A stretch of DNA of 64,000 nt. Origin: a virus. The translations under genes and the position numbers were made by a program. Numbering within the stretch: the first letter of the stretch is position 1; every line of letters starts with the position of its first letter. Below, in pieces: positions 17,900-38,522 of the stretch. Under the pieces are notes generated by a model. That model searched no databases. It saw nothing but the letters and a program-made list of their open reading frames with translations, and was not told where the DNA came from. The stretch spans positions 3,872 to 67,871 of IMG/VR virus record IMGVR_UViG_3300045918_000145. One strand, written 5' to 3'.

Positions 17900-18108
17900 T
17901 GTTCAAAACTTTATTTGATGTTATAAAATCAGCGGTAGTGTTGTTGTTACTCATTGCAGGAATGATGACACTACCATTTTTTATTGTAGCATGTGTTGTT
18001 TTACTGGTTGGCTATGGATTATTTGTAGCCATACACGAATCAAGATTGAAGAAGGAGAGAATGAATGAAGCCAACAAAAACAAAGCAAAAACCACAGCCA
18101 CTGAATAA
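17899..18108 (+). CDS. Small membrane protein
   Basis: Long hydrophobic stretch followed by a basic tail. Confidence 0.55.
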   Translation: MFKTLFDVIKSAVVLLLLIAGMMTLPFFIVACVVLLVGYGLFVAIHESRLKKERMNEANKNKAKTTATE

Positions 18109-18439
18109 CGACTTTGTTATTGCAGAAATGGTTAAAAAGATAACAGTCATCAAGCCAATCAATACAGGAGCAAAATATGATCATGGCAAAGCAAGACATG
18201 ATCTAATTACTCCTGAAATTGAAACTGAAATGGCAGAGATTCTTACTCAAGGTGTAGATGAGTATGGTGAGGAATCTTGGAAGACTATCGAAAATCCAAT
18301 TAAACGCTATACAGCAGCCTTGAAGCGTCATACTAATGCTATGGCAAGGGGTGAATTGATTGACCCTAAATCAGGCAAATACCACGCTTCTCATATAGCA
18401 GTTAATGCTATGTTCCTACAGTACTTTCAAAATAAGTAA
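18065..18439 (+). CDS. dATP/dGTP diphosphohydrolase-domain protein (DUF5664 type)
   Basis: GAKYDHGKARHDLI...YGEESWK...RYTAALKRH...DPKSGKYHASH. Confidence 0.8.
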   Translation: MKPTKTKQKPQPLNNDFVIAEMVKKITVIKPINTGAKYDHGKARHDLITPEIETEMAEILTQGVDEYGEESWKTIENPIKRYTAALKRHTNAMARGELIDPKSGKYHASHIAVNAMFLQYFQNK

Positions 18440-18455
18440 TTTGAGTAATAAAAGT

Positions 18456-18481
18456 AAAAGGGCTGATCACTCAGCCCTTTT
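18456..18481. terminator. Bidirectional rho-independent terminator between the convergent middle and late operons
   Basis: AAAAGGGCTGA-tcac-TCAGCCCTTTT. Confidence 0.85.
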
Positions 18482-18483
18482 GT

Positions 18484-21400
18484 TTAATCACCCATAAGCA
18501 TTTCACCTACATGTTCTAATCCATTCACATACAGTATCTTTGGCCCGCCACTTAATAACGCTGATAGCGGATTACCTATGAATGATAGCATTCCTTTTGT
18601 TACGCCTGGTATTGAATTCAAGATATTCTGATTGCCTAACTGGTGACCAATTATGAATGTAGCCAGCGTACTAAATGGATGCTCAGCAACTACATTTTTG
18701 ATATGTTTCAGAACACGCAACTGATACTTAGTAAACCACATCAAACCAACATTATTAGCATACTCAATCATCCTATGTGTAGGCGGAGCGAAATCAATAA
18801 ATTCATCGGTGACTTTACTAACTGCATTATCATGTGTCATGCCTTCTTTAGTATAGTGCTTATACAGAACGTATCTGCCAACATAGTCAGTCATTTTAAC
18901 TGCATTGTTGAGCATACGGTAACCTTCAGTGTCCTCTGTCATAAATATAGTTCTACCAACCTTTTCAACCGTTGGATGCAGTTTACTCAAACCAGTATCA
19001 ATGGCTTTATTTAAACCAAATTTAAACGGTGACTGTATGTGGCCTGTATCAACGTCATCTACGATTGATGGTAATAATCCAGCTGCTATCATTGCGGTAG
19101 ATGGGTTAATAGCTATCTCGTTTTCAAGACGTTTAATCTCACGAGTCATATTAGTAACCATGACACTACGCTCAGCAGCACTCAATGACTGCTTAACTGC
19201 GGTTACTTCACGTTTCTGTAATAGCACCTGTAACTTACTATTGTCAGCTTGGTAGCGTAATGCACTACTGAATGCTTCTCGTTGCAAAGGTATGATATCC
19301 TTTAAAGGAATACCTTTTGACTTGAGATACATGACGTTACTTACATGGTTACCCCAAGTAACAAAGAAGTTACGCACAACAATATTAGCTTTCGTGAGCT
19401 TAGTAAGTTGAACCAAGAAATCCTCAATAGTCTTGGCCCTATTAGCTGTACGCCCCAGAACACTTTGCACTTGCTTATCTGAATCCACAAAGGGATTCTC
19501 AAAACCTAAAGCAAACTGCATACCCTCCACAACAAGAGACTCGAATACATTTCTCTCTTCCTTCGTTTTACCAAACATTTCACTGATAGAATACTTACGC
19601 TGACCAAACACAAGATCAACTATATCCTGAGGTATCATCATTTCATTCTTACCCCAATATGAAAGTATCTGCTGCTTCATTTTAGGTGGGAACATATTAT
19701 AGATATCACGGTAACGTGCATGATCTGAATGTGGGCCAATCTTTACAAATGACCCAGGATATTTCTCTCTATCAGTATCCCACATATCCTTTAAAGCTAT
19801 AACCACATCCTGATTTATTTCAGGCGTGACAATTTTATCTACTCTCGTACTAGCCATAGCACCCAATATAGAATCAAACTCAGAGAATTGCTGTAAATAT
19901 GTATCTTTAGCAAACTCACTCATGACGTATCGCATGTTGGTTATATTACCTTTAGTGTCAAACTTAGGCGTAAGATAATTCTCTCCTAAATCAACACCAG
20001 TGGTACGTGCAGACGACTGAAGCATTACTTTTATTTTGGCTTCAGTAGCTCTCAAAACTTTTGCATTATTTGCATCAGCTGCAAATTCAGGATTAACCTG
20101 ATTGCCTATTTGATGCTGTATATCGTAAGAGTTAACACCTTTAGTTTTGTTCTGCTGAAAGGATACAATACCTTCCTGTAAATCGTTGATCGTACCGCCA
20201 CCAACGTTTGTGTAGACATAAATAGTATCCTGTACGGGATCAGTTGGATCACGTTTAAGTTCACCATTACGAGTGAACCCTTGATCAGCCAATCTTTGTT
20301 CATCATGGATTGTTCCAAATTCCATCTGAACACGACTATTCAGAATAGTCTTTGTGTAACCTTTTTCCATTAGAGCTGGATTGTCATAAAACAGATCAGT
20401 CAGTATCTGTTCTTTTAGTAACTTATGACTATTCAAAACATTCTCAATAGCACTGATATCTTCTTTCATCAGATTAGAAATAATCTTCTTGTCAGCCATT
20501 TTCATGTAATCCATAGATTTAACAGAAGCAGCTCTATCGAGTAACTCTACAACCTGGCTGAATGTACTGTCAGTAAGTGAACCATCAAAACCAGTCTTAT
20601 TCATTAGTGCTAGATTATTAGCATTACGATAATTGACACCTTGCTTGAAGCTGTGTCCTGTGATCATTCCATAAGCAAGGTCAGTAACTCCACCTTCAAA
20701 GAAAGTCATATACTGCTTTATACGCGCAGGATTCTTAATAACAGGAGTGAGCACTGCTTGGATTTCACCCAAGAGTCTATCTACCTCTGCCTGTCGCTGG
20801 ACTTTATTGTCAATGAAGCCTCGTATAACCTGTAGACTGTTCTTGTCCAACAGAGAGCTTATATCGCCTTTAAGTAACGTTTTACCCATAGCTGATTTTT
20901 CATGGCTTTCAAGTTTACGCTTAAAGTACTGATTTAGAGTATCTCGTATGACCTGAGCCACATCATTTTTAGCTCCATCAAGAACTAACTTACGATTGCC
21001 AAGCATGTCATAGAAAACTCTGAAACGCTCAGTCACACCTTTCATCTCATTGAAAAGTGTAGGTACTATTCCTTGCTCTTGATCGTTATACCAAAGCATA
21101 GCCAATCGCATTTGGTGACCAATCATATTGTCAACTTCAGGAAGCTTCTTAAGCTCAGCCATCATCTTACCGATAGCTGTTGTACTCATGACCTTAGAAG
21201 CAACATCCTTAATCTTGTTATCCATTGTTACACCAAAAGCAGTTGTTTTAGCTTCAGCCTCTCCAGCTGCTTGGAATAACACATTGGCTTGTTTATTCTC
21301 TATAAGAGACAGAGCCTTGACTAGATTCTCAAGCTCTACAGCTACATTGCTTGAGTGCTGTTGGTGATTAAAAGTAGTCTGAACAAAATCCATGATCTTA

Positions 21401-24400
21401 GTAAAGAGATTGACTATTGTGGTTTGAATATTCTTTTCAAATATACCTAACAGACCCTGGCGTTTCTTGATCATTTCAGGAGTAACAGATAACTTATCCA
21501 GCTCACGCTTAAAGTTTTCGTTGGTCATACCAAAAGAAAGAAATTCATCTAATGCTGCAAAGCTTTTATCTGCACGTTGAACGGGGTTGAATACGTAATC
21601 CCAACGAGCCTTGGCAGCCACGATTTCATGTGCATTAGCTGCATCAGTAAGATCAGCATTTGGATCATTCATAAATACCCTAAAAGCATTGTTGCCGTAG
21701 GTATCTTTGAATGAGTCATAAGCCAAGTTATACAGATCTGAAACCTGATTACGTAACTCAGCATTCTGATTCAAACCAAAATGAGTAATGTGATGGATTA
21801 ACTCATGGGCATAGACTTCAGCAGCTGACATTCTAATACCCTGAGTAAGCATACCAGGAGCAGGAGAACTACTCTGATTCTGTCTCTGAATATAAATCTT
21901 TTTACCAGTGTCATCCAATTTATATAAACCACGAGTGTCTTCCAACAATGACTTATGCTCAGCTATGAATACTTGTACAGGAGTCATTACACGAGCTACG
22001 ATGTCATTCAGAATACGCTTTAGATCCGCAACGTGTTCAGGTGAATTCTGTACACTGGTATGAGCTGCCTGATTGTCTAGTGCAAGAATGCTGTCAAATT
22101 TATCCACCACATTCTGAGAATCTATATTCTCCGTGTTAGGACGATTGGTTATTGGATCAACATAGTCATTCTCATTGGTTGATGTATCATTAGCAGATGA
22201 TGCAAAGAACTTTTCTTGACCAAGATCTTTTAGAGAATTTATGTCTATATTAGTATTCTCAGCATCCATAGTTAACACTGAATTTGGTTTAACATTGCCA
22301 AGTTTTTTATCATCAGCAAATAATGTCTTACTTGGATTTGATGGCTCAATAGTAACACCAATACCATTTAAAGGATATTGAGCTGACTGAGTTATATTGC
22401 CAGTTATTTCCTTTTTATTATTGGTTACTTCTTCCGCCATATGTTTTGCATCAAATGTTACTCTATTAAACAGGTTATCCAACGCTTCTTTATTTTCTGC
22501 CTCAGTATTAGTTTCACGAAACCCAGATACTTCTCTTAAGAATTGCTGTTGAGCTGCTTTGTAAGGTATTTCATCACCAGATTCTCTAGCTTCTTGTCGT
22601 ATTAAACCAACTTCCATTCTTACTTCTTCTTTGGAATATCCGTATGTGTCAAAGTTGACAACGTTATCTTTGAATAAAGCTGCAATAAGCTCAGGTTGGC
22701 TAATATCATTTGATGAAATAGCATTCTCAAGAGTTTGTTTAAGTTCCATTTCTGTATGCATATCAAACATAGCCTGACCAAGGCTGTAGTTAGAAACTAC
22801 GTCAAAGAATCTTTGATTTGCACTATCTCTAACAGCTTCACTATCTTTGATACTATGAGGGAAACCGTCATGGGCATTGAGTATATCTACTCCTTCAAGA
22901 CCCATTAGATGATTAGCTACCATTGAGTCAATCATCTGAATAGATCGAACCATAGCTGAAGCACCTACTTCTTTTAGGTAAGGAATACTGTCAACGTAAC
23001 CCGTAAATGGAGATAAACCAGATTCTGCAGTATATGATTGTGAAACCGTAGCTGCATCAGAATAGTCCTTAGTTTTGTTACCCGCGTTATCTTTTTGCCT
23101 ACCTACCTCAGCCAGTGTTAAATAACTATGGTCATTATCAGTATTATCAGGAGTTTTAATCTTTGGAATAAGATGTTCTATACTTTTAAGAATTACTTGT
23201 AATTGAGCATTAGTTATACGTCCAACATCTTTCTTTTCAACCATTACACCTTTAGCTTTAGCCTCTGCAGCATTAGCAGCAATCTGCGCGTCTACTTTAG
23301 ATTTCAGAACTAAATTGTAAACTGTAGCTGCTCTTTGAATAAGAGTATTAAATGGCTTACGGGCTTCAATGACAGGCGCATAAACTGTGTCAATGGCGTC
23401 TTCCATTGCCTGACCATAAGTTTCTCTGGTTGCTTTAGTTATAAGTTTGATGGCATCTTTATCTAATTTAAACTTTTTCAGTTTATTAATATCCAGGTTG
23501 CCATTAGTCATATATTTAGCCAAAGACATTTCTGAACTTGGCTTACCATCATGACTATTGGTAAGAACGGCTACAGATTTAAGTATTTTTTTAAGATCAG
23601 CCTCTACTATATCTTTGGATTTATTATCAACTACGCCTTTAATGACTTTTTCAATACCACCATAAATGCCGTCACTAATGACGTTCTCTCCGGTCAAGAT
23701 CATATTCTGTTTATTGATGCCAGCACTGTACATAGTCTGCATTGTTCTTGGCTTAGCAAGTTTACGAATAAGACTATTGATAATGCCTTCATTGACTATC
23801 TCACCCGTTTCTTTGTCAACATGTTCTGTGAATCTACCAAGTAAGGTTTCCAGAGCCATTGAATAATTATATTGTCTGTTGGCCTTATTACGAACGTCAT
23901 CTTTTAGTGTTGAGTTTTTACTGTCAAGACGTAATTGCTTTTTCATTTCAGCTATCTTCAACGCCCATTGCTGAGCCATACGTTGATAAGCATCATTGAG
24001 GTTATACTGACCAAGTAGTTTATCAAGATTTGGTGCTGTTTTACGTCTATCAATACTCATACCGCCCATAGCCAAAGATGCTAATACTTCGCGCTTATCT
24101 GCACTATCTGGTATCAACATCATAATTCCAATGATAGGGCCATTACTTACACCATCTATTTCATTGTACATATCGGTTTTGAATAAACCTTTACCAGGGT
24201 CTTCAGACGACTTATAAGCCTCGTAACGAGCATACTCAACCAGACCCTTAAGACTATGTAGCTTTTCTTTACCAGCGACTACACCGGCTGCTATGGCACT
24301 CTTTTGAGTGTCATTCATAACGCCTGTAGCCTGATAGGTTTGAATTGCTTTTATGGCATTAGCAAACACATCTTTTTTAAGTAGATCTGTTAGTTGAGTT

Positions 24401-26133
24401 AATTGATTATCAACACCACCAACCTTACCTGATTCAATACCAAAGGATAAGGCAACTGCTTGTAGAAATGCATTGTCAGTGGCTTTATCTGTTTTTGGAT
24501 TAAATTCAGTAAGCCACGAAGTAGGACTAAATAGATTCCTGTGCATCTTTGAATTCTGTGGATTAAGATTGCCAGTTTGAATCATACGCATATTGTTCAT
24601 AAACTTTGCAGCTATGTAAAATAAAGTATTTTGGTTTTCTGTCTTTCTTAAATCAGCTTGCCTCATCCAAGCTTTTAGATTCTTGAGGTCACGCTGAATA
24701 CCTCTGTTAGCACCATCTACACTCTTATTACGGGTTTCTAGCAAATGCGTATCGTCAACCATACCAATGATAGCATCTAAAGCAGAACCCTCTCCTAGAG
24801 CCTGAAACACATCCATTGAATGCTGACTTGCATCGTATGCAACATCCACATTCTTTTTAAGATTTGCTGTTTGTTTCTTGCCAACAGTACCATTTCTGCC
24901 TATAGGAGCGTTATCAGGCATAAATATTTTAGACCATGAAAAGTTAGTAGCATCTGACTCATTGTCGAACAATTTATCAAACGCACCTGGGGCATTACTC
25001 ATATGTTCTTCGCCAATAGTCATATGAGTTGGAGTGTCATATTTATGATCACTCACCAGTTTTAGAAACTTAGCGGTAGATTTTCCATTCTTACCTTCAT
25101 TCTTAGGATCACTATCAAAAGCTCTTTGCTCAGCTGTTTGAGGATGGAACACTTCACCAGTTTCCAGAGTCTCATTATTTTTAAGAGCTTCAATACCTCG
25201 TGTTCCGTCTTCTTTACCCGTATAGACTTCTTGGCGTTCAAAGTATGGTTTACCGTTTTTGGTCTTCATTGTTTCCATAGCTGCTATAGCCATGAAACCA
25301 AGAGACATCTCAAGACGCGCTTTGGCATTCATATCAGATGTTTCAGTTGGCTTAATAGACATACGTTGTAGTATCTTTGAACCAAGTTGTTTAGCCAAAG
25401 CCTCAGCAGGTACTCCTAATTTCATTAAATGCTCCACTAGACTATCAGGCATTGGTTCATCTTTACCATAACCCATCAAATCTCGAAGAGATTCCGTAGT
25501 TTGACCAGTAGCAGTAGTACCGTTAGTATGAAGCCATTCATACATTGTAGCAGCCATAGCTGTCTTAGTAGGTACGTCAAGCTTGCTAGTGTATGTATTA
25601 CCTTCATAGGTGACTGATGCAGGTTCTTTTGGATTAGTTGCATCACGAAATGGTAGATACTTAATCATATCTTTAAAACGATAGAATCTATCGCCTTTAG
25701 GCTCAAAGATCTGTTCAATAGTTTGTTGGAATGGTTTATTAAAGTTGTCATTGAAATACTTGATAGATGCTATTTCTTTATCTGAAATATCATTTTCACG
25801 CAGAAGGGTAGACTTAAGCGCATTGGTTACTGAACCAACTCTTTGAACAATGTTCTTGAGAAGTTTCTTTAAACCAACAGGCTCAAACTGGTTAAGCTCG
25901 TTGTTCGTGTCTTCTTCACGATTTGTGTATGAATAAGCTACAGAGGACTTAATAGCCTCCTGTTGAGCACTTTTTATTACTTGGTCATACTGATCTTTAA
26001 AAGATTTCTTTTGACTCTGTAAGTCTTCTACATGCTTCTCAAGTAGCATTGTTTTACCATTTCGTACTTGATTCTGTATTTTGGTATTAAGTTTATACTT
26101 GAGCATATTCATATTTAAACAGGATTGTGACAT
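18484..26133 (-). CDS. Virion RNA polymerase, catalytic plus C-terminal part (N4 gp50-like, lacking the N-terminal ~1000 aa)
   Basis: T7-like motifs EIDGVSNG (~aa 660), RKLAKPRTMQTMYSAG (~aa 790), AHDGF (~aa 1089); AHELIHH zincin-like motif; own GGGAG RBS. Confidence 0.9.
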   Translation of the reverse strand: MSQSCLNMNMLKYKLNTKIQNQVRNGKTMLLEKHVEDLQSQKKSFKDQYDQVIKSAQQEAIKSSVAYSYTNREEDTNNELNQFEPVGLKKLLKNIVQRVGSVTNALKSTLLRENDISDKEIASIKYFNDNFNKPFQQTIEQIFEPKGDRFYRFKDMIKYLPFRDATNPKEPASVTYEGNTYTSKLDVPTKTAMAATMYEWLHTNGTTATGQTTESLRDLMGYGKDEPMPDSLVEHLMKLGVPAEALAKQLGSKILQRMSIKPTETSDMNAKARLEMSLGFMAIAAMETMKTKNGKPYFERQEVYTGKEDGTRGIEALKNNETLETGEVFHPQTAEQRAFDSDPKNEGKNGKSTAKFLKLVSDHKYDTPTHMTIGEEHMSNAPGAFDKLFDNESDATNFSWSKIFMPDNAPIGRNGTVGKKQTANLKKNVDVAYDASQHSMDVFQALGEGSALDAIIGMVDDTHLLETRNKSVDGANRGIQRDLKNLKAWMRQADLRKTENQNTLFYIAAKFMNNMRMIQTGNLNPQNSKMHRNLFSPTSWLTEFNPKTDKATDNAFLQAVALSFGIESGKVGGVDNQLTQLTDLLKKDVFANAIKAIQTYQATGVMNDTQKSAIAAGVVAGKEKLHSLKGLVEYARYEAYKSSEDPGKGLFKTDMYNEIDGVSNGPIIGIMMLIPDSADKREVLASLAMGGMSIDRRKTAPNLDKLLGQYNLNDAYQRMAQQWALKIAEMKKQLRLDSKNSTLKDDVRNKANRQYNYSMALETLLGRFTEHVDKETGEIVNEGIINSLIRKLAKPRTMQTMYSAGINKQNMILTGENVISDGIYGGIEKVIKGVVDNKSKDIVEADLKKILKSVAVLTNSHDGKPSSEMSLAKYMTNGNLDINKLKKFKLDKDAIKLITKATRETYGQAMEDAIDTVYAPVIEARKPFNTLIQRAATVYNLVLKSKVDAQIAANAAEAKAKGVMVEKKDVGRITNAQLQVILKSIEHLIPKIKTPDNTDNDHSYLTLAEVGRQKDNAGNKTKDYSDAATVSQSYTAESGLSPFTGYVDSIPYLKEVGASAMVRSIQMIDSMVANHLMGLEGVDILNAHDGFPHSIKDSEAVRDSANQRFFDVVSNYSLGQAMFDMHTEMELKQTLENAISSNDISQPELIAALFKDNVVNFDTYGYSKEEVRMEVGLIRQEARESGDEIPYKAAQQQFLREVSGFRETNTEAENKEALDNLFNRVTFDAKHMAEEVTNNKKEITGNITQSAQYPLNGIGVTIEPSNPSKTLFADDKKLGNVKPNSVLTMDAENTNIDINSLKDLGQEKFFASSANDTSTNENDYVDPITNRPNTENIDSQNVVDKFDSILALDNQAAHTSVQNSPEHVADLKRILNDIVARVMTPVQVFIAEHKSLLEDTRGLYKLDDTGKKIYIQRQNQSSSPAPGMLTQGIRMSAAEVYAHELIHHITHFGLNQNAELRNQVSDLYNLAYDSFKDTYGNNAFRVFMNDPNADLTDAANAHEIVAAKARWDYVFNPVQRADKSFAALDEFLSFGMTNENFKRELDKLSVTPEMIKKRQGLLGIFEKNIQTTIVNLFTKIMDFVQTTFNHQQHSSNVAVELENLVKALSLIENKQANVLFQAAGEAEAKTTAFGVTMDNKIKDVASKVMSTTAIGKMMAELKKLPEVDNMIGHQMRLAMLWYNDQEQGIVPTLFNEMKGVTERFRVFYDMLGNRKLVLDGAKNDVAQVIRDTLNQYFKRKLESHEKSAMGKTLLKGDISSLLDKNSLQVIRGFIDNKVQRQAEVDRLLGEIQAVLTPVIKNPARIKQYMTFFEGGVTDLAYGMITGHSFKQGVNYRNANNLALMNKTGFDGSLTDSTFSQVVELLDRAASVKSMDYMKMADKKIISNLMKEDISAIENVLNSHKLLKEQILTDLFYDNPALMEKGYTKTILNSRVQMEFGTIHDEQRLADQGFTRNGELKRDPTDPVQDTIYVYTNVGGGTINDLQEGIVSFQQNKTKGVNSYDIQHQIGNQVNPEFAADANNAKVLRATEAKIKVMLQSSARTTGVDLGENYLTPKFDTKGNITNMRYVMSEFAKDTYLQQFSEFDSILGAMASTRVDKIVTPEINQDVVIALKDMWDTDREKYPGSFVKIGPHSDHARYRDIYNMFPPKMKQQILSYWGKNEMMIPQDIVDLVFGQRKYSISEMFGKTKEERNVFESLVVEGMQFALGFENPFVDSDKQVQSVLGRTANRAKTIEDFLVQLTKLTKANIVVRNFFVTWGNHVSNVMYLKSKGIPLKDIIPLQREAFSSALRYQADNSKLQVLLQKREVTAVKQSLSAAERSVMVTNMTREIKRLENEIAINPSTAMIAAGLLPSIVDDVDTGHIQSPFKFGLNKAIDTGLSKLHPTVEKVGRTIFMTEDTEGYRMLNNAVKMTDYVGRYVLYKHYTKEGMTHDNAVSKVTDEFIDFAPPTHRMIEYANNVGLMWFTKYQLRVLKHIKNVVAEHPFSTLATFIIGHQLGNQNILNSIPGVTKGMLSFIGNPLSALLSGGPKILYVNGLEHVGEMLMGD

Positions 26134-26159
26134 AATACACTCCCAATGGTTAAATTTAG

Positions 26160-26185
26160 AAAAGGCTTCCTTACGAAAGCCTTTT
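26160..26185 (-). terminator. Rho-independent terminator immediately upstream of the vRNAP catalytic gene
   Basis: Minus strand AAGGCTTT-cgtaag-GAAGCCTT followed by TT. Confidence 0.65.
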
Positions 26186-26208
26186 CAGATTAGATTAATA
26201 CGAAGTGC

Positions 26209-26244
26209 CTAGCACTTTTTCCCGCCACCTTTTTTCTTAGCCAT
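26209..26244 (-). CDS. 11-aa mini-ORF MAKKKGGGKKC
   Basis: Near-perfect SD AAGGTGGTGAT 5 nt upstream of the ATG; stop lies within the AAGTGC-TAG-GCACTT hairpin. Confidence 0.5.
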   Translation of the reverse strand: MAKKKGGGKKC

Positions 26245-26276
26245 TTGAAATCACCACCTTTATAGTTAGTAACAGC

Positions 26277-26305
26277 TGTATAGTATATATTACGTAATAT
26301 GGCAA
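26277..26305 (-). promoter_or_regulatory. Candidate sigma70-type promoter with a palindromic spacer
   Basis: TTGCCA-N17-TATACA on the minus strand; perfect palindrome ATATTACGTAATAT at 26287-26300. Confidence 0.35.
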
Positions 26306-26309
26306 TAAT

Positions 26310-26540
26310 TTATGTTGGAGATGTAGGCCATACTGGATTGTATGGATCACATGTTTCAGGGAAATCTCTAAGAGCTTGACGATATATTACCCATTCTGCT
26401 TTTTTCTCTGGGGTGAGGGGTGAGTCAGAACCTTGTGTCCAATCGCATTTAAACAATAAATTATTACGAATCTCTTTATATCTTGAAATTAAATATTCGT
26501 TTTCTGTTATGTCTATATTTTTCCTAATTATCACACTCAT
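26310..26540 (-). CDS. Tail fibre assembly chaperone-like protein
   Basis: RNNLLFKCDWTQGSD...WVIYRQALRDFP...VWPTSP; start refined (ATGA overlap). Confidence 0.8.
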   Translation of the reverse strand: MSVIIRKNIDITENEYLISRYKEIRNNLLFKCDWTQGSDSPLTPEKKAEWVIYRQALRDFPETCDPYNPVWPTSPT

Positions 26541-28756
26541 CGTTTTGTCCCTAAACCTACCATAGATGCACGAATAAAATCTAAATAGTTGTACTGACCC
26601 GGTCTTGAATTTGAATAAGTAAATTGCAGGGTATAAGTCCAATTACCTACTCCGGGTGAATCATATAATGTTAAAGCACCAATCAACTGCTCAAGCGGAG
26701 GTATATCAGGATAGGTACAAACCGCTGTTTGCTGAAATAACATGGCGTTTGGCGTACCAATAATCTCTCCGTTTCTACAAAATTGTGCTGTTACGGTATA
26801 CGAATTACTTAATTCAATTCCATTTGAGCTAGCCATACAACCAGCATTTATCATAAAGCTGGCATTTAAGATTACTCCGTATGCTTTGCCAATGGGCATA
26901 TCAAATTCTATGGAAAGTTTGTTGATAGAATGAGATAGATCTTCCCAACCCGAAATAAATATATCATGGTTGGTAGCAGTGTAATCATGACTTTCTAGTG
27001 GAAAAGTTACAGCATTACCCTTTATCTGCAACGTATCAACACCCAAGTCTCCTGTGGATATCTTATCGCCATCAATAGTCGTCTGGGTCGGTCTAGTCCA
27101 AATATTTGCCGCCATATTGACAGCACCCTTAGCTTTATCTGCTATAGCATTAAGTAGTGTCTGTCTGGTTGAGTATACATTAGCAAATTTACTTCTAAAA
27201 ACAGTTCCATCAATTACTACGTTACTGCCTGGTATAGTACCAAAACCAGTAAGCCCACTGATATATGTGGTAAGATCTGATACGGCAGTGCCATACGCAG
27301 TGTTTTCAGTTGTTATATGATACGTTGAAGCAAGTTCTGCTATTCCCTCCACTTCGTTAGCGAGCGTGTTGTATTCTAAAAGTGCTGCCGGTTTTTCACC
27401 TGGAGTAATAATATTGTTAGAGGCGATGTCTGTTAATGTATTTAATGCTGCTGTAGCATTTGCACTAGCATTAGCGAGTATTGTAGATGCTGTGCTATCA
27501 ATATCAGCTAAACTTGTTGGCTTATCTGTAAGATGAGCATACCCAGCAGACCCGCTACTAAAAGTCACTTTACCCGTAAAATCAAAGACACCACCATCAA
27601 AACTAAATTTATTATTTGCATCTTGTGCAAATTGAAATGTTCCGTTTTTATTAATTCGCCACCCAGCCGTTCCTATTACAAAATTTGAGCTTTCTATGTA
27701 ATTACCTATTTTAGCGTTAGTAATATTTCCATCAGTAATCATTGCAGTTGTGATTGTTGCGTCAGCAATCAAGGCTGAATTTATATATACTTGCCCATCT
27801 GTGACAATAAATGGCACTGCTTGCTCAAGAGGATCATCAGGGTCAACTATTGAAAATCTGTCGGCCAGTATAATAAAGTCTGCATTCTCTCCATCGTTGG
27901 CTAAACCAAATCCAGCAATGTGACCATTAACATCAGTCTTGAGAGTATATTGAGCGTATAGATTGGCTTCAACTAGTTTCCAGTGAGATGCATTATCAGG
28001 CGGAAATAAGCCAATATTAGGCGGATCAGTAAGCTTGGTAATGCATTGGTATATCTTTCCACTATAAGTGTCTGTAAGACCGCCTATCATGGCAGACTCA
28101 CCTTTTTGGTATTCCTTATTATCTACCCATAAAGGTGCAATGGTTTGTGCTCTGACTTGTGATTCTATTTGTAAGGCAGCACTTAAATCTCCAAGTGAAT
28201 TACCAGTAGATGCAATAAGCGTTTCAACATGAGTAGCTATAGCTCCATCTAGATTTGCGGTTGTTGTGTATTCATCTAATGTAAGAGCTATATTATCTCC
28301 TACTGAGGATAATAAACCATCCCTTCGTGTAGCCCATGCTGCGTCTGCAGTAGCAGTAGTAGAGTAATCAGCAAAGATTCCTGCGAGGCTATCTGTTGTT
28401 ACAGCTAGTGACACCGCATTATTTAAATCCCAAACGTCACTTTCAATAGTACCAATTCTATCAATACGGCTAGCCAAGTCACCAAATAACTCTGTGGATT
28501 TAATCTGACCAGTTAATTTATTGATAAGATACTCAGTAGTGATCAAATCAGTTACTTCATCATTAGTAGGCGTATGACCGTCCTGACCCTTTTCTGTAGC
28601 ATATTTGACTATAATAGGTAAGTCAGTATTAGATACAATAATTTGAGCGTTCTGGGTCAGATTAACTACATCAGGACTATCCAATACAGTAATGTTAGAC
28701 CTATTCTGTACAAGTACTACTGGACGATCTTGTTGTATCAAAACTAAATCGTTCAT
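26537..28756 (-). CDS. Tail fibre / host-specificity protein with a lambda-J C-terminal-like (DUF1983-type) region
   Basis: LTGQIKSTEL, YTLKTDVNGHIAGFG, ADRFSI, PFIVTDGQVYINSALI, ITNAKIGNYIESSNF...GWRINKNG. Confidence 0.8.
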   Translation of the reverse strand: MNDLVLIQQDRPVVLVQNRSNITVLDSPDVVNLTQNAQIIVSNTDLPIIVKYATEKGQDGHTPTNDEVTDLITTEYLINKLTGQIKSTELFGDLASRIDRIGTIESDVWDLNNAVSLAVTTDSLAGIFADYSTTATADAAWATRRDGLLSSVGDNIALTLDEYTTTANLDGAIATHVETLIASTGNSLGDLSAALQIESQVRAQTIAPLWVDNKEYQKGESAMIGGLTDTYSGKIYQCITKLTDPPNIGLFPPDNASHWKLVEANLYAQYTLKTDVNGHIAGFGLANDGENADFIILADRFSIVDPDDPLEQAVPFIVTDGQVYINSALIADATITTAMITDGNITNAKIGNYIESSNFVIGTAGWRINKNGTFQFAQDANNKFSFDGGVFDFTGKVTFSSGSAGYAHLTDKPTSLADIDSTASTILANASANATAALNTLTDIASNNIITPGEKPAALLEYNTLANEVEGIAELASTYHITTENTAYGTAVSDLTTYISGLTGFGTIPGSNVVIDGTVFRSKFANVYSTRQTLLNAIADKAKGAVNMAANIWTRPTQTTIDGDKISTGDLGVDTLQIKGNAVTFPLESHDYTATNHDIFISGWEDLSHSINKLSIEFDMPIGKAYGVILNASFMINAGCMASSNGIELSNSYTVTAQFCRNGEIIGTPNAMLFQQTAVCTYPDIPPLEQLIGALTLYDSPGVGNWTYTLQFTYSNSRPGQYNYLDFIRASMVGLGTKR

Positions 28757-29061
28757 AGAGGATTCCGCACAGAGATATGAAATTGATCAGAAGTCTGACT
28801 TCCTGAGATATCTGATCTCATCAGTTCTGCTAGATAACCACCAACAGGTAACCCACCGAAACCAATAGATACTTCTCCACGAGGCCCGTCAACAACTGTA
28901 CCAGTCAACGTAGTAGTTGTTGGAGTTGTAGCAACTCGACACACAACAGTACTGGATGTAAGATCCACAACCACAGTTTCACCAGCAGGGCCAATTGTAT
29001 TTTGATACTGTATAAGAGTAGATCTTGAGTCACCATGAACAATATTTAGAGTGCCAGTCAT
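28753..29061 (-). CDS. Small tail-associated protein (BppU N-terminal-like)
   Basis: LNIVHGDSR...VDLTSSTV... beta-rich; ATGA-coupled on both sides. Confidence 0.5.
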   Translation of the reverse strand: MTGTLNIVHGDSRSTLIQYQNTIGPAGETVVVDLTSSTVVCRVATTPTTTTLTGTVVDGPRGEVSIGFGGLPVGGYLAELMRSDISGSQTSDQFHISVRNPL

Positions 29062-32000
29062 ATGTTATCCTTTAACACATTTGATTTAACACATTTGAGA
29101 ATGTCATTAGCTTCATCTATTTGTGAATCTATATCAGCAATTGCTTCAGAGTACAATTTCATAATTGGTTTACCGTTAGCGTCTACTCCTACCTGTATTT
29201 CAATATCACCTATGTTATCAACAGCTGACAAGTTATCTGCTACTTCAACTGGAGCTTCAGTTACTGTTTCAGGTTGAACCTGTGGAGCAACAACCTCATC
29301 AGATGTAGGTGTTACTATTGCTTCTGGTTTTGCGGTAGTCTCAGGAGCTGTTTGAGCTTCTTTGGTATATGTAATTGGTTCCAGACCAATATCCTGTCTA
29401 GCTTTATTTATAAGTTCATATACCTTCTCTATTCCAGTATTTTTAAATGCTGCTTCTGCCTTGGCAATCGCTTCGGTTTGAGTAGTATAATGACCGCCCA
29501 TACGTTTGCCAATAGATGTTTCATATACCGTATAACCAAGCCCATCAGCTTTATGAGCCATGAATTTAAATTCAGATAAGCCATGAAACTCAATAAGTCT
29601 ACCTTTAGTTTCAACTACCTCACCGTCTGTATTTTCATAAGAACCAACAACTAGTCTGCTGTTAGGTTTAAATCCAGCTTTGGTTGATCCATAGTCGCCT
29701 GTTTCTGTTTTACTAGCGGCGGTGACTGTTTCGGTATCTCCTTCAGGTTTGACAGTAGTTTCTGTTTGAATAGGTTTGCTTGTTTCATTTTTGCTTCCTT
29801 CATTAGCTTTATTGGATTTAATCCAAGCTTCTTTATATTTAGTACCTAACTCAGTAATATTATCCAAATAATCCTGATGGTCGTTATTCTTTTTGGCAGC
29901 TTGATAAATATCTCGTATTTCTTTCAAACCTTTTTCAGTTACGTTGCCAGTTTTCAATTCAGCCTGTAATGCAGTTAATCTCTTCTTGCCAGTTTTTTCT
30001 ACTGGCTTTTGTGGAGTGTCAACTACAGGTTTACTTTCCACAACAGGTTTTGTAGCAACTGGACTTGTCACAACAGGAACAGATTCTGTAGGCTTAATAT
30101 TAGAGGCTGTAGGAGCTGTTTGAGCAACAGTGCTAGTACTTGTATTGGTTTTATTGGATAACGTCTTAAATAGACTCTTAGCCAGTTTAACCTCACTATT
30201 TAAAGCAGCAGCCTCCTCCTTGATGTTACCTATTAAAGGATTTGCTCCTAAACCAGATCTTTGATCAATTACGAATGTTTTACCTACTGCTTTTGCTTTG
30301 GCTTGAGCCTCTGCGTAAGCCACTTGATGCTTTGCTGATAATGGAACACCTTTAGTTACATGGTCATATACAGCCTGAACCATTTCAGCTTTTGCAACAT
30401 GAACATCACGAAACTTTTCTAAACCATTCAATTCAGCAGTAGCTTTTGCAGTATTATTAACCTGCGGGTTAAGGAAATGAGTTATACCCTGTATATAAGA
30501 ATCAATACCTTTAAAGTCAGATCCTTTTATACCGTGATAAATGTCATTGCTAACCTCAGCAATAGTTTTACCTGTGGTATTAGATCTAGTAGCTTTTTCT
30601 TCAATGGCTTGACGTATTGCACTGGCTTCTTTCTTATCAGCTAGTAAAGCTTTTACATCTGTGTCTAAGTCAGGTCTTTTGATAAGTTCATCAATGTTAT
30701 CATTAGTTAGTTCATTCTTGTGAGCACTTGACCCAAACGACACGCTTTCAACAATCTGCGATTGTGTCGCGGTCTTTGGGTCAAGTGTCACAGCATCTCT
30801 TTCCTTGTTACGTTTTGCTTGAGCGTTGGCATATATGATGTCAACGAAACCATTCAATTTCTCTACTCTGGCTTCTTGCTCAGGCATCAATTTAGTTAAA
30901 CCATCAAACTCAACTTCCTCAACTTTTGAAAGTGTCTCACCACTCTCAGTTTTACTAGCCAGTTCCTGAAGTCTTGTCATGGTTTCCAGGTATGATTTAC
31001 GCTCGTGTGCTTCTATCTCTGAAGCTTTATTATAAGCATCTGGAGTGTCATACTTAGTAAGGATCTCTGTGGCTTTGATTGGATTATAATTTGGATTAGC
31101 TGGATCAGACATTTCTACATGAGTGTCATCAGTATGCTCTATGGTTGCTATATCCTTTTTGTAATTAGCGTCAGCCTGAGTAACATTCAATTTATTGGCT
31201 GCAACTAGAGATTCCTTTTGAATCTTAGCCATAACCTTACTCTCAGGTGTAGCACTTAAGATATTGCCTACAAATGACTTGGTTTTATCAGCAGCTATTT
31301 TTGTTCCAAAAGCTGCTCTGTCAACAACTGCACCTAAAGGGCCAGAACCAACACCACCAAGTAATTCATTGGCTAGGTTGGTAAATGTAAGTGGTTCACC
31401 TATTGAAGATGTAGCTATTGCTTCTGTTGCTGGTTCACTTAAAGCTTCACCAGTCGCATGACCTGCAAAATGACCTAGTTTAGATTTAAAACTGTGAGCC
31501 GACATTATTGCAGAAGCAACTTTGTTAACTTCGTTTTCAGTATATTTTTCTACAGCTACTCCACTAGCTTTAGCCGCAATTGTTATAGCAGTTTGATCAC
31601 CCGCAGCTACGATGATTCTGGCTTTATTTAAAGCTGCACGAGCAGGAGCACTAAATACTCGACCTAAGCCAGCACCTAATGCAGTATCTGCTGCTGCGAG
31701 AGTAGTTGAATAAGTTAATGCCTTTTCCTGCGCTGATTGAACCCATTCTTTATTCTGAGCCAATAATGCTAGGTTTTGCTTGGTAGGTGGTAATCCTATA
31801 GATTTTAATTTATCTTCGGCCAGTTCCAAGAATTTAGATGATAATGCATCTCCAGATTCAGCCGCAAACATACCAGCACCAGCACCTATGGCAGTACCTA
31901 AACCAGGAACTACACTACCAGCTGCTCCACCTGCTGCAGCTCCAGCAGCTATGCTTGTCATGGATGAAATGGAATCAGCACCCACATTGATTACACCGCC

Positions 32001-32540
32001 TGGATTGGCAACCAATTCAGGTACAGCTGCAACCATTGCTTTAACACCATCCCATGACCAGAAGCCGTTCTTCTCTATTTTCTTTTCAACATCTAATAGA
32101 GTCTTGGCTACTGCTTTATCTTCAGAAGTATAAATACGTCCTTTTTGTTTTTCAAAATACTTACTAGCGTTATTAGCAAAACTCGAACCTACTGAACCAT
32201 CTTGATTTAAAGCATCACCAGTTATAGGTAAACGACTCACTAAGTCTTTATGCGAATCAAGTACCTTTGTGAATAAATTAGATAGATATCCACTATTATC
32301 AGAATCTTCCTGTTTTGCAGCAGCATCTATATTTACTTTATTATATTCACTTTTATAAGCAGTATTAGAAAGAACATTATTAAAGGCTTCCCTAGTAAGT
32401 GCTTTATCTTCAGCAGACGCATTCTGATAAGTTTTATCATTACCATACATTCTATTAAAGCTAAGATTAGCTATTGCCTGTTGCGTATCCGCATCAGCAC
32501 TATGCCATTCAGGGGTATCTGAAACTATAACATCAGCCAT
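29058..32540 (-). CDS. Virion RNA polymerase N-terminal (ejection) part as a separate protein
   Basis: Occupies the gp50 position right after gp51; Gly/Ala-rich hydrophobic segments; no polymerase motifs. Confidence 0.65.
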   Translation of the reverse strand: MADVIVSDTPEWHSADADTQQAIANLSFNRMYGNDKTYQNASAEDKALTREAFNNVLSNTAYKSEYNKVNIDAAAKQEDSDNSGYLSNLFTKVLDSHKDLVSRLPITGDALNQDGSVGSSFANNASKYFEKQKGRIYTSEDKAVAKTLLDVEKKIEKNGFWSWDGVKAMVAAVPELVANPGGVINVGADSISSMTSIAAGAAAGGAAGSVVPGLGTAIGAGAGMFAAESGDALSSKFLELAEDKLKSIGLPPTKQNLALLAQNKEWVQSAQEKALTYSTTLAAADTALGAGLGRVFSAPARAALNKARIIVAAGDQTAITIAAKASGVAVEKYTENEVNKVASAIMSAHSFKSKLGHFAGHATGEALSEPATEAIATSSIGEPLTFTNLANELLGGVGSGPLGAVVDRAAFGTKIAADKTKSFVGNILSATPESKVMAKIQKESLVAANKLNVTQADANYKKDIATIEHTDDTHVEMSDPANPNYNPIKATEILTKYDTPDAYNKASEIEAHERKSYLETMTRLQELASKTESGETLSKVEEVEFDGLTKLMPEQEARVEKLNGFVDIIYANAQAKRNKERDAVTLDPKTATQSQIVESVSFGSSAHKNELTNDNIDELIKRPDLDTDVKALLADKKEASAIRQAIEEKATRSNTTGKTIAEVSNDIYHGIKGSDFKGIDSYIQGITHFLNPQVNNTAKATAELNGLEKFRDVHVAKAEMVQAVYDHVTKGVPLSAKHQVAYAEAQAKAKAVGKTFVIDQRSGLGANPLIGNIKEEAAALNSEVKLAKSLFKTLSNKTNTSTSTVAQTAPTASNIKPTESVPVVTSPVATKPVVESKPVVDTPQKPVEKTGKKRLTALQAELKTGNVTEKGLKEIRDIYQAAKKNNDHQDYLDNITELGTKYKEAWIKSNKANEGSKNETSKPIQTETTVKPEGDTETVTAASKTETGDYGSTKAGFKPNSRLVVGSYENTDGEVVETKGRLIEFHGLSEFKFMAHKADGLGYTVYETSIGKRMGGHYTTQTEAIAKAEAAFKNTGIEKVYELINKARQDIGLEPITYTKEAQTAPETTAKPEAIVTPTSDEVVAPQVQPETVTEAPVEVADNLSAVDNIGDIEIQVGVDANGKPIMKLYSEAIADIDSQIDEANDILKCVKSNVLKDNI
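29071..29098. repeat. 14-bp tandem duplication at the 3' end of the vRNAP N-terminal gene
   Basis: TTTAACACATTTGA x2. Confidence 0.9.
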
Positions 32541-34780
32541 TAGTTATTCCTTTTAACTTTACGCTTGCTGAGATTTATAGCTACTGCGTCAACACCATCT
32601 CTAAGAGCTTCATATATAACTTTATTTCCTGCGTCATCGTTTCCAACATTTCCTGGGTTATTTGTTTTTTGTCCTAAACCAGCTGTGCCAAGACTTGAAT
32701 CTGCTTTCATAACAGATAGAATCATTCTTGGAGATACATCATATTTTTTAGCAGAAGCCATAACCATTTTACCAGTGATATCACTCTTAGGAGCAACTCT
32801 TTTAATATAGTTATCAACATCTACATCTGTTTTTACGTCAGGAGTTGCATTATAAATGTTGCTAACTCTATTAACATGACCTTCTTTAGTAGCGTAATTT
32901 TTTATGTTATATCCACCAACTATACCTCTTTTAGCGTCTGTAACATTTCTTACTAGATCACCTTCGTTAGTAGAAGCTTCGGCTGTAGATGCACCACCAC
33001 GCAGTTTTTCAATCATTTTTACGTCATTATCTGCACCTACAAATTTACTTACAGTTTTTTGAGGATCTTTTACAAAATCAACAACTCCTGACAGAAAGTT
33101 TCTTACAGGAGATTTACCGGTAATAACATTATTTATTACAGCTTCTGTTTTATCATCAGTACGCATTTCATTTACTGGTTTACTGGACTTATTACCGGCA
33201 GCACGATTAGGAGTAGTTGCTGATGCATCAGGATTAGGAGAAGCTGGTACAACAGTAGTTGTACCACCACTACCACGTAAATCTTTAATTCTCTTTGCCT
33301 CTGCTGATACCTCTGCTGTAGTAAATGGAAGAGTAGGTTTAGCAACTTCAGTCGGTTCTTTAGGATTCGCAGTTTCACCAGCAGTTTTATTACCGAAACC
33401 CATAGCCTTTTTAAACTGAGCATAAGTTGTATCAATACTTTCTGATGTCAAAGGATCAATTACCGATCTACCTCTACTCAACTGCTCATCCCTACCAGCA
33501 GCAAACATGTTCTTTCTTAGCGTTACACCATCTTGTAACGCTTTGGCTTCAACCTCAGATACATTAATATCTGCAGCAGTTGCTGCTTTAGTAAGAGCTA
33601 CTTTATTTTTATAATTTTCAGTAAGTTCAGCAACTCTTTTATTAATTTTATCGAAACCAATCTGATTTAAATCGTTACCAAAGAAACCACCACCATCGTA
33701 AGCTTCTTGAAATGATTGTAGTAGTATTGCATCAGCTTCTCCCGGAGGAACCATTTTACCTAAACTTTCACGAATTGTTCTTAACTTGCCAGATTCACTA
33801 AATGTACCTGCCCATTTTTCAATAGGATTATTAACAATATTGCCAAGTTGATTTACAATGGATTGACTGAGGTTGCCTTTAGCATCCATCAAACCACCAG
33901 AAGACTCTACGGCTTTAAGATACTTATCCTGTACCCCGTTACTTAAAACTAATTTTAATTGATCTTTTAGAACTATAGATTTATTTTTTGCATCATTGAC
34001 TCTACGAGTACCTTCTATAGCATAAGCATCATTGTAATCCTTCATTACTGTAGTTTGATATTGAGTGAGAGTACCTGCTTTCTCTAGTTCAGCACGTAAA
34101 GCTTCACGAGCTTTTGGTTTTTCACTCTCTGGTAGATCAAGTATGGACGCTTCAATAGCCAACATACCTGCGTCATGTCCACCAGATTTTTTAGTCTTAG
34201 GATCAATCTCAGCAGCTGCATTTAAAACATGATTAACTCGTGACTCATGTTCTTGAAGTTTAGCCGTATTTATGTTCTGAACCTCAGTGGCTTTCTTTGC
34301 TATATATCCTGGCAGCTGCTCATCAGCGAACCCGTTAGTAGCACCCTCACCTATAAGAGTGTTCTTAAAGGCTGAAGCTGCTTTGAGAGGGTCACGACCA
34401 CCTTCTGTTGTTAAGAAACCATCAGCATTACGAGTGGCTAATTCTACAGCCTTCTTTTTAAGAATATCTGTTTGATCAGTTATGGTTTTACTAACTGTAC
34501 CCATATCAATCATATTACCAAATTTCTGTTTGATAATATCCTGGTCTTCAGGTGTTGTTAACGCGGCATTCAAACCACCGGCTTGTAACTTATCCTTTAG
34601 GTAATTTTGAACATTATTAGTATTTTCCTGCTGATACTGAGCTTCTTGGTTTGTCATCAAACCTTTGATGCTACTAAGTATATCAGTCATATTAGACTTT
34701 TGGGCGTTTATACCAGCTTGCATTCCCGCAGAGGGATCAGAAACTGTAGCACCATATTTTTGATATTGCGGTTCTGACAT
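32540..34780 (-). CDS. Ejection protein with C-terminal lysozyme-like domain (N4 gp51-like)
   Basis: Synteny; AKKYDVSPRMILSVMKADSSLGT...NNPGNVG. Confidence 0.65.
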   Translation of the reverse strand: MSEPQYQKYGATVSDPSAGMQAGINAQKSNMTDILSSIKGLMTNQEAQYQQENTNNVQNYLKDKLQAGGLNAALTTPEDQDIIKQKFGNMIDMGTVSKTITDQTDILKKKAVELATRNADGFLTTEGGRDPLKAASAFKNTLIGEGATNGFADEQLPGYIAKKATEVQNINTAKLQEHESRVNHVLNAAAEIDPKTKKSGGHDAGMLAIEASILDLPESEKPKAREALRAELEKAGTLTQYQTTVMKDYNDAYAIEGTRRVNDAKNKSIVLKDQLKLVLSNGVQDKYLKAVESSGGLMDAKGNLSQSIVNQLGNIVNNPIEKWAGTFSESGKLRTIRESLGKMVPPGEADAILLQSFQEAYDGGGFFGNDLNQIGFDKINKRVAELTENYKNKVALTKAATAADINVSEVEAKALQDGVTLRKNMFAAGRDEQLSRGRSVIDPLTSESIDTTYAQFKKAMGFGNKTAGETANPKEPTEVAKPTLPFTTAEVSAEAKRIKDLRGSGGTTTVVPASPNPDASATTPNRAAGNKSSKPVNEMRTDDKTEAVINNVITGKSPVRNFLSGVVDFVKDPQKTVSKFVGADNDVKMIEKLRGGASTAEASTNEGDLVRNVTDAKRGIVGGYNIKNYATKEGHVNRVSNIYNATPDVKTDVDVDNYIKRVAPKSDITGKMVMASAKKYDVSPRMILSVMKADSSLGTAGLGQKTNNPGNVGNDDAGNKVIYEALRDGVDAVAINLSKRKVKRNN

Positions 34781-34792
34781 AACTGCCCCTTG

Positions 34793-35314
34793 TTAGAATG
34801 AGTTTTTAACGCCCCAGTTTTTCATATAGTCAGCACGTCCTGCATCATTCGCTGTAGTACCATACATGATACCTTTAGACGCTTCTAGCCTACGACCTTC
34901 ACGCTCACTGTTTCTTCGATTTAAATCATCAGCAGAGTTCATAAAGTCTGTTTTCTGTAAAGCCATCTGATTGCCATAATAACCACGCATAAAGTCATTT
35001 TGCTTCTCTTGGTTAATAGCACTATATACGCCTAGACCTACCTGAGCAGCTCCTAGAGCCATTCCACCTTTACCCTTCATATCAAACCAACCACCTTGAG
35101 CTTCAGGCGACCCTGGCGTGGCAGCTCCGGTTATGTGATTAACGCCATCCGTATTTACACCGTACTGATTAACACCCTTCCACCAATCTCCCATACTAAC
35201 ATCGGATAGTGGTATATTTTGTAGCGGAACACCGTTTAAGGCTGCTTGCGCTCCACCTTGCGGTAAAAATCCTAAACCCATATTAGTTTTTTTAGGATCA
35301 AAAAGATTAGTCAT
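34793..35314 (-). CDS. Small ejection/structural protein (N4 gp52-like)
   Basis: GGMALGAAQVGLGVY hydrophobic helix followed by a coiled coil; synteny. Confidence 0.65.
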   Translation of the reverse strand: MTNLFDPKKTNMGLGFLPQGGAQAALNGVPLQNIPLSDVSMGDWWKGVNQYGVNTDGVNHITGAATPGSPEAQGGWFDMKGKGGMALGAAQVGLGVYSAINQEKQNDFMRGYYGNQMALQKTDFMNSADDLNRRNSEREGRRLEASKGIMYGTTANDAGRADYMKNWGVKNSF

Positions 35315-38055: not shown

Positions 38056-38522
38056 GCCGCTGCTCCTTCTAACGAGACTAAAGGATCAATAGGTGTTGTT
38101 ACATCAGGCACGTAATTGAATCCTAAACCTTCAGGAATACTATCGCACGTATTAGATAATTCAGTTACTGTCTGCTGGCGTACTAAACCAATCTGAGCAT
38201 TAAGCAGATTAACCTGTTGTGCGTTCATAAGAAATTGTACAGAGGTTTGGAGCACTGCTGTCAGTGCTCCTAGATAAACCGTAGTGTATTCTTTACCTGT
38301 TATTCTCTGTGCATCATATTCTTGTTGAAGATGTAATTTGGTTGTTCGCATTAAAGCATCAAACACACCAATACCATCAAGAGCTTCAGTAGTTAAACTA
38401 GATAAGGGCATACCAAAACTAGGCTTAGGATCGACTAAACCACCTTCAGCATTTGTCAGCTCTTTGGTTGTTTTATCCCAACCAGCTGGATTCATATCTA
38501 ATGGTTGTAATCCTAACGTCAT
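38046..38522 (-). CDS. N4 gp54-like protein, N-terminal half
   Basis: GIGVFDALM...HLQQEYDAQRITGKEY. Confidence 0.7.
   Translation of the reverse strand: MTLGLQPLDMNPAGWDKTTKELTNAEGGLVDPKPSFGMPLSSLTTEALDGIGVFDALMRTTKLHLQQEYDAQRITGKEYTTVYLGALTAVLQTSVQFLMNAQQVNLLNAQIGLVRQQTVTELSNTCDSIPEGLGFNYVPDVTTPIDPLVSLEGAAAWL

Follow-up and report, generated by a model that had tools for sequence, protein, structure and literature searches.

In a 64,000-nucleotide stretch of viral DNA (IMG/VR record IMGVR_UViG_3300045918_000145, positions 3,872 to 67,871; hereafter the window, whose own numbering is used below), the virion RNA polymerase (vRNAP) is almost certainly split between two genes, one for its N-terminal domain (NTD) and another for the polymerase domain followed by the C-terminal domain (CTD). 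Instead of a single polypeptide of about 2800-3800 amino acids (aa), the window holds two open reading frames (ORFs) of 1160 and 2549 aa, together 3709 aa, with three genes between them. Our reading of this arrangement as a whole, including a clasp that we infer, is that a single ancient fission produced the two halves, that the gap between them became a slot for other late genes, and that the halves dock on each other and are tied by a disulfide between the broken ends; we give this complete statement a probability of roughly 0.6. The record itself is an uncultured viral contig of 71.8 kb, 97% complete, most of which is covered by the window. The features on which the argument turns are the following.

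29058-32540, minus strand: stand-alone vRNAP NTD gene, 1160 aa (from the ORF, NTD homology and a 31-sequence family alignment)
31551-32045, minus strand: Gly/Ala-rich hydrophobic region of the NTD protein, aa 166-330 (low-complexity over about aa 161-260)
29061-29222, minus strand: conserved C-terminal tail of the NTD protein, aa 1107-1160 (from the tail alignment and the cysteine census)
28753-29061, minus strand: 102-aa ORF, first gene of the intervening cassette, its start overlapping the stop of the NTD gene (ATGA)
26537-28756, minus strand: tail-fibre gene, 739 aa, with a region like lambda J / Phage_Tail_Tip
26310-26540, minus strand: tail-fibre assembly (chaperone) gene, 76 aa (PHROG families, E down to 6e-16)
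26134-26309: spacer of about 177 nt before the polymerase gene, with a hairpin at about 26160-26185, a T-rich run and a GGGAG ribosome-binding site (RBS)
18484-26133, minus strand: NTD-less vRNAP (polymerase plus CTD), 2549 aa (from PHROG, Pfam and an alignment to N4)

A first-pass annotation, made from the letters of the window, had already proposed one vRNAP in two genes with a tail-fibre cassette between them, and its coordinates, the total of 3709 aa, the gap of 2.9 kb, the quoted polymerase motifs and the RBS belonging to the 2549-aa ORF are all confirmed from the ORFs and the sequence. The split itself is borne out by family matches and by the manner in which both proteins tile a relative of 3550 aa (P0045), which is a fused vRNAP according to PHROG (E = 0). 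Residues 162-824 of this relative align to residues 167-838 of the NTD protein (E = 1e-32) and residues 1172-2133 align to residues 190-1124 of the 2549-aa polymerase (E = 3e-70), while in a profile comparison residue 129 of the polymerase corresponds to residue 1128 of P0045. Since the two window proteins tile P0045 colinearly and without overlap, the break falls in the linker between NTD and polymerase, and the earlier suggestion that it lies close to the boundary of the mini-vRNAP stands. For N4 the published borders are 1-906 for the NTD, 907-1006 for a low-complexity linker, 1007-2101 for the polymerase and 2124-3500 for the CTD (PMC13434306), and the NTD-less construct of N4 has about 2493-2494 residues, as against 2549 for the polymerase in the window. 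Gene order was compared with that of N4, VBP32 and pVco-5, where the vRNAP gene comes directly after the gp51 position, whereas in the window this place is taken by the 1160-aa ORF, followed by the 102-aa ORF, the fibre gene, the fibre-assembly gene, the spacer and only then the 2549-aa ORF.

The identity of the 2549-aa protein is given by its matches to PHROG 2206, "virion RNA polymerase" (E = 0), and to the Pfam family vRNAP_dom_2. It contains the polymerase motifs EIDGVSNG at residue 658, RKLAK at 790 and AHDG at 1087; the T7-like single-subunit polymerase motifs A, B and C are thus present, and motif A aligns to N4 gp50. A CTD homologous to residues 2124-3500 of N4 gp50 is present as well, residues 1487-2495 aligning to gp50 residues 2493-3451 (BLASTP E = 2e-24), and against the solved N4 vRNAP chains, which include the NTD-less construct of about 2493 residues, phmmer gives E = 8e-31. 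What the protein does not have are the N-terminal 850-900 residues or so of its best cultured relatives, to which it is about 25% identical. Its ATG at 26133 is preceded, at a distance of 6 nt, by a GGGAG Shine-Dalgarno sequence (26140-26144). The public gene call for this polymerase begins at Met8 (2542 aa; window 26112-26133) and so omits Cys5, a residue conserved in all 24 of 24 orthologues; because the upstream ATG has a Shine-Dalgarno sequence and the cysteine is found in every orthologue, 26133 is the better start. One metagenomic relative of 2990 aa (P0100) is an NTD-less polymerase with Cys5 that has about 490 extra residues between its N-terminus and the polymerase core.

The 1160-aa protein, in contrast to its partner, was said in the first-pass annotation to be Gly/Ala-rich and to have no polymerase motifs, and indeed it has no polymerase matches in Pfam or PHROG and does contain a low-complexity stretch. 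A phmmer search retrieved 83 matches, among them about 35 stand-alone proteins of 900-1300 aa that are colinear with it over residues 1 to about 850, as well as giants of 3100-3700 aa that are found only through the first 950 or so residues (E = 8e-23 to 1e-4). Homology to the NTD of single-chain vRNAPs extends over some 700-800 residues, and there are weak colinear matches to VBP32 and pVco-5. The predicted similarity to the N-terminus of gp50 was seen, by phmmer and in pairwise comparison, with the NTDs of fused vRNAPs, the match to the N4 NTD itself being not significant in BLASTP. Several other searches were uninformative: the NTD-family profile gave only chance-level matches to solved structures, a search of the protein Atlas with residues 930-1060 gave no usable match, and a single-sequence pattern scan of viral contigs gave none, although an alignment-based scan of viral contigs found six loci of the family. 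All members of the NTD family come from metagenomes.

According to the 31-sequence alignment, the NTD protein consists of a conserved core (about aa 1-850), a variable region and a conserved C-terminal tail. The Gly/Ala-rich region in the core, a candidate for insertion into membranes, is the best-conserved block that it has in common with fused vRNAPs and further large phage proteins. For the NTD of N4, membrane-spanning helices are predicted at 224-278, and the domain is reported to enter nanodiscs and to associate with gp51 around the portal (PMC13434306). The tail is made up of a short strand region and then a helix of the form Y.EA......I.EA..IL.C.

The split is not confined to this contig. 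The nearest relative, from another sample (L006), has an NTD protein that is 68% identical and shows the order NTD gene, 100-aa ORF, fibre, small ORF, polymerase, and no fewer than seven additional contigs, from different samples, also have the split. A sister lineage (L017), whose capsid protein is 51% identical, has a fused vRNAP of 3125 aa. In total, stand-alone NTDs form about 40 protein clusters, and 25 polymerases have the length expected of an NTD-less form. In a tree of the polymerase domain a single branch separates these 25 from the rest (SH-aLRT 94, or 100 for 24 of them). Rooting on N4, an outgroup taken by assumption and not derived from the data, nests them within the fused forms. 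Such a tree fits a single fission.

The slot between the two genes differs in content and length from one phage to another. In the window it holds the cassette listed above, in which the start of the 76-aa chaperone gene overlaps the stop of the fibre gene, and whose 102-aa ORF has a 75% identical counterpart at the same place in L006. The 739-aa fibre matches PF09327 Phage_Tail_Tip (E = 3e-27; 95.5 bits, with a cut-off of 22), PHROG tail-fibre families and, by tblastn, J-type fibres. Read directly from the sequence, the hairpin and T-rich run in the spacer look like a terminator; a scan for consensus promoters and terminators did no better than on shuffled sequence and did not flag this hairpin. 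A search for repeats around the cassette gave no convincing flanking direct or inverted repeats, and hence no sign of a recent mobile-element insertion. We also considered whether the position of the fibre is one held in common with Litunavirus, and rejected this, as the related fibre there is in the replication region, next to a vRNAP of full length. Elsewhere in the clade the gap between the NTD and polymerase genes can be as short as 241 nt (L007) or 194 nt (L008), or extend to 1.75 kb, with a GH108 endolysin, in L012, to 2.85 kb in L016 and to 6.66 kb in L014, where both a fibre-like protein and a CHAP-domain protein are encoded. The slot thus behaves as an exchange hot spot for late accessory genes, to judge from these loci.

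L012 13401-13991; L013 13580-14242; L014 12648-14330 and 16586-17206: slot accessory genes (GH108 endolysin, CHAP-domain protein, collagen-like fibre)

Insertions are also observed within the NTD protein. Several stand-alone homologues (P0016, P0029, P0036 and P0020) contain a GGDEF-type nucleotide-cyclase domain that scores above the Pfam cut-off and shows the signature [SH]GDE[FY] with an upstream LTGIPNRR motif. It is placed between the conserved core and the cysteine-bearing tail, i.e. in the former linker, and would be an ejected cyclase-like domain.

L009 8460-12038; L010 115-3948; L011 10001-14983: GGDEF-bearing NTD homologues

The most regular feature of the split proteins is where their cysteines are. 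The NTD protein of the window has only one, Cys1150 (codon 29091-29093), 10 residues from the C-end, and the only cysteine of the 2549-aa polymerase is Cys5 (codon 26119-26121). This pattern of one cysteine per half recurs in all seven of the seven readable pairs, and in 11/11 of the stand-alone NTD proteins in the loci that we fetched. In a wider census, 43 stand-alone NTD proteins (46,116 residues) contain 46 cysteines, every one of them in the last 13 residues and at 2-12 residues from the C-end, with 41 of the 43 proteins having it, while 25 NTD-less polymerases (64,097 residues) contain 25 cysteines, all at positions 5-10. The cysteine is the only invariant column in the alignment of the NTD tails, just as M1 and C5 are invariant in that of the polymerase N-termini. 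In contrast, N4 gp50 and the fused vRNAP of L017 have no cysteine at all, fused vRNAPs in general have almost none, and in the remaining late proteins of the window cysteine makes up 0.66%. A published survey of vRNAPs from 191 Schitoviridae puts its frequency there at 0.00075% and proposes that ejected proteins shun cysteine as they cross the periplasm (PMC11445570). Two other readings of the cysteines were rejected: the N-terminal one does not mark a lipoprotein, there being no signal peptide before it, and the pair does not belong to a split intein, since no intein-sized domain lies beside either residue.

A split vRNAP as such is already published, so that the layout, of which the first-pass annotation knew no described example, is new only in part. 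Alteromonas phages AltAD45-P1 to P4 (Garcia-Heredia et al. 2013) have a vRNAP of two polypeptides, verified by polymerase chain reaction and seen as gel bands of 270 and 175 kDa (PMC3821669). In the AltAD45-P1 record, the break is at the linker between polymerase and CTD, with an upstream ORF of 2495 aa and a downstream ORF of 1409 aa, and the only cysteines are Cys2493 of 2495 (2 from the C-end) and Cys4 of 1409. The paper is silent on where the cysteines are, and took the cysteines as a sign that the protein is not injected (PMC3821669). The two systems are thus alike in being natural two-polypeptide vRNAPs whose only cysteines, one per half, sit at the break, but differ in that AltAD45 separates NTD plus polymerase from CTD, with adjacent genes, whereas the window separates NTD from polymerase, with genes 2.9 kb apart; moreover, the AltAD45 genome is 104 kb long and organised differently. 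Judging from the sequences, AltAD45 is an independent case of the terminal-cysteine rule in an unrelated lineage.

Shigella phage pSb-1 serves as a negative control. Its vRNAP is likewise annotated as several ORFs, three in number (gp101-103; L019 30194-40982), but it is a close relative of N4 and there are no junction cysteines, nor any cysteine in the three ORFs; at one junction the stop and start overlap, and at the other there is a gap of 59 nt. A later survey treated the three ORFs as a gene-calling or sequencing error and concatenated them (PMC10654107), and this is probably not a real split. Relative to N4 gp50 (3500 aa) and other Schitoviridae vRNAPs such as gp71 of Pseudomonas phage DEV, the window keeps the module order of NTD, T7-like polymerase and CTD, the near absence of cysteine and the genome context (portal, gp57, capsid, the gp55-gp51 positions, RNAPII, DNA polymerase, primase), and differs in having two genes 2.9 kb apart, a fibre cassette between them and one terminal cysteine in each. 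There may also be a functional likeness to T7 gp14, gp15 and gp16 and to N4 gp51 and gp52, separate ejected proteins that build a trans-envelope conduit (PMC13434306), and by analogy the stand-alone NTD protein would work like these; no sequence relation to them was found, however, and the NTD protein, unlike them, is homologous to part of a polymerase polypeptide.

We propose that, in the large, uncultured freshwater branch of N4-like phages to which this one belongs, one ancient fission of the vRNAP gene, within the flexible linker between the membrane-active NTD and the polymerase domain, would have made the intergenic gap that became a slot for accessory late genes, filled here by a translationally coupled cassette of 102-aa ORF, fibre and chaperone. 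The tail of the NTD would dock on the N-terminus of the polymerase, and Cys1150 and Cys5 would form a disulfide in the virion once their surroundings are oxidising, thereby restoring a nearly linear head-to-tail chain with overhangs of a few residues. Kazmierczak et al. reportedly found in 2002 that N4 requires the CTD for encapsidation and the NTD for injection; on its own, the NTD would therefore be without a packaging signal and the polymerase without a leader. With the clasp in place, packaging through the CTD signal could bring the NTD along into the capsid, the polymerase could be drawn through the tail behind the NTD at ejection, and reduction in the host cytoplasm could finally free the polymerase from its membrane anchor. 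The idea of an ejected stand-alone translocation protein accompanied by a near-naked polymerase is probably incomplete: the two genes are separate as was said, but the unique cysteines at the broken ends suggest that the products are joined again.

Structure prediction lends weak support to docking of the NTD tail on the polymerase. When the tail was modelled with the first 300 residues of the polymerase, the complex scored 0.58, while the best of three controls scored 0.03. The score mark used here was reached by 58/80 solved complexes and 2/110 mismatched pairs, counts that hold only roughly here because the alignments used for the prediction were our own; at scores of 0.60 or below, only 7 of the 80 solved complexes pass, together with both of the passing mismatches. 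Agreement between the runs covers at least 65% of contacts, with a partner pLDDT of at least 66.

Several points weigh against the proposal. The prediction just described was graded as weak support and yielded no interface. Packaging and ejection of the two proteins, and any disulfide between them, are predictions from sequence, and since virions assemble in the reducing cytoplasm, the bond could form only after packaging or release. Neither the NTD tail nor the first 128 or so residues of the polymerase has a detectable counterpart in the linker of a fused relative (hhalign of the tail against that linker found no relation), so that their role as a docking module is deduced from conservation only. 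For most of the 25 short polymerases, the split is judged from their length and N-terminus and not from an NTD gene. Two of the 43 NTD proteins are without the cysteine, although their C-ends appear truncated or aberrant, and some have a CC doublet; the likely partner (P0094) of one such protein (P0015) has a single cysteine, and strict one-to-one pairing is therefore not proven.

Among the alternatives, one accepts the split as real and has the two proteins act separately: the NTD would enter the virion as a third ejection protein by way of the gp51-like protein, the polymerase would be packaged alone, and the cysteines would bond elsewhere, to another copy of the same chain, to the portal or to the gp51-position protein. 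The association of the N4 NTD with gp51 around the portal (PMC13434306) means that packaging without the polymerase is possible, and the terminator-like hairpin and separate RBSs would allow the two proteins to be made in unequal amounts. Nevertheless, we consider this unlikely, since the gp51- and gp52-position proteins, being free of cysteine, cannot be disulfide partners, and homodimers do not explain why cysteines occur only at the facing ends of split vRNAPs, at two split sites and in unrelated lineages; furthermore, the predicted contact of tail with N-terminus beat its controls. Alternatively, the halves may dock non-covalently while the cysteines bind a metal or do other chemistry, with no disulfide. 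Assembly in a reducing cytoplasm would suit this, and many of the polymerases have a C-x3-H after the start (e.g. CITAHG, CLNIHN), but the histidine is missing from the window protein and from its nearest relative, the tail of the NTD offers no second ligand that is conserved, and a stable zinc site needs more than two, which makes this explanation decidedly improbable.

The placement of one cysteine on each side of the break might also bring to mind true peptide ligation without an intein, through an acyl shift at the NTD cysteine and attack by the polymerase cysteine. This has very little to recommend it: no intein or Hint domain is present, 2-12 residues follow the NTD cysteine and 4-9 precede that of the polymerase, and both AltAD45 polypeptides run separately on gels, at 270 and 175 kDa (PMC3821669). 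Finally, given that the record is an uncultured contig and that the split calls in pSb-1 were attributed to errors (PMC10654107), the arrangement could be an artefact of misassembly or a pseudogenised vRNAP gene. We regard the chance of this as close to nil. In Logan contigs (re-assemblies of public runs), a wetland run that is probably the source sample contains 18000-33000 in one piece with no differences, and two other studies (of a pond and a wetland) contain identical short pieces, one of which bridges 28958-29108, across the junction at 29058; the misassembly for which the earlier annotation had wanted a check thus did not show up. The same layout in L006 at 68% identity and the seven or more further split contigs also speak against an artefact, as does the fact that both broken ends are conserved, each with its own start, stop and cysteine.

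The remainder of the window is that of an N4-like phage. PHROG matches are found to both subunits of a heterodimeric RNAPII, to a DNA polymerase, a primase and a gp42-like exonuclease, and also to a gp56-type capsid protein, gp57, a gp59-type portal and a large terminase, so that the hallmark gene set of a Schitoviridae-type genome is present. The late genes lie on the minus strand in N4 order, namely portal, gp57-like, capsid, small virion proteins and the gp53, gp52 and gp51 positions. Those nearest to the NTD gene are as follows.

32540-34780, minus strand: gp51-position protein, 746 aa, no cysteine (from gene order and cysteine count)
34793-35314, minus strand: gp52-position protein, 173 aa, no cysteine (from gene order and cysteine count)
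35324-37483, minus strand: gp53-like protein, 719 aa (from phrog_2220 and gene order)
37492-38055 and 38046-38522, minus strand: gp54-type ORF pair (from a PHROG 2050 match)

The 746-aa protein may be an ejection protein that ends in a cell-wall hydrolase, its C-terminal region being weakly similar to glucosaminidases/lysozymes (Pfam E = 0.004, under the cut-off). The gp54-type virion protein (PHROG 2050, a profile of 303 residues) is represented by an overlapping pair of ORFs (158 and 187 aa), each matching a different half of the profile. As this pair is found in all related loci, the clade may have split a second structural gene as well. Near-identical DNA to 18000-33000 occurs in wetland and pond metagenomes of three studies, an indication that the phage is a freshwater one. 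Neither megablast of 18000-33000 nor tblastn of the 1160-aa and gp51-position proteins gave any match among deposited phages, and so no cultured close relative is at hand.

In the literature that could be searched, we found no description of this split site, of its presence throughout a large freshwater clade, of non-adjacent vRNAP genes with a variable slot or of the terminal-cysteine rule. Metagenome surveys have discarded shorter homologues or concatenated split ones (PMC10654107). The single chain of 3500 residues has so far been treated as a hallmark of N4-like phages, yet in an entire freshwater clade the enzyme comes as two polypeptides. Since throughout this clade the break lies at the linker that cryo-electron microscopy has defined in N4, the NTD can be regarded as a separable ejection module. 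The contents of the slot, together with the insertions in the linker, suggest that fission opened a site for the exchange of host-range and effector genes.

The cysteine rule, for its part, offers a testable answer to the question of how a split enzyme could be packaged through a signal in its CTD and still be threaded NTD-first, and a clasp of this kind would also explain why cysteine is avoided elsewhere in these proteins. More tentatively, and with the odds slightly against so broad a claim, terminal cysteine pairs may be what phages in general use to join giant ejected proteins from separate genes into a single, redox-switchable thread, in which a disulfide would hold outside the cell and through the periplasm and would be cut in the host cytoplasm, freeing the polymerase, while fission and clasp together would leave linker and gap free to take up GGDEF-like domains, fibres and lysins.

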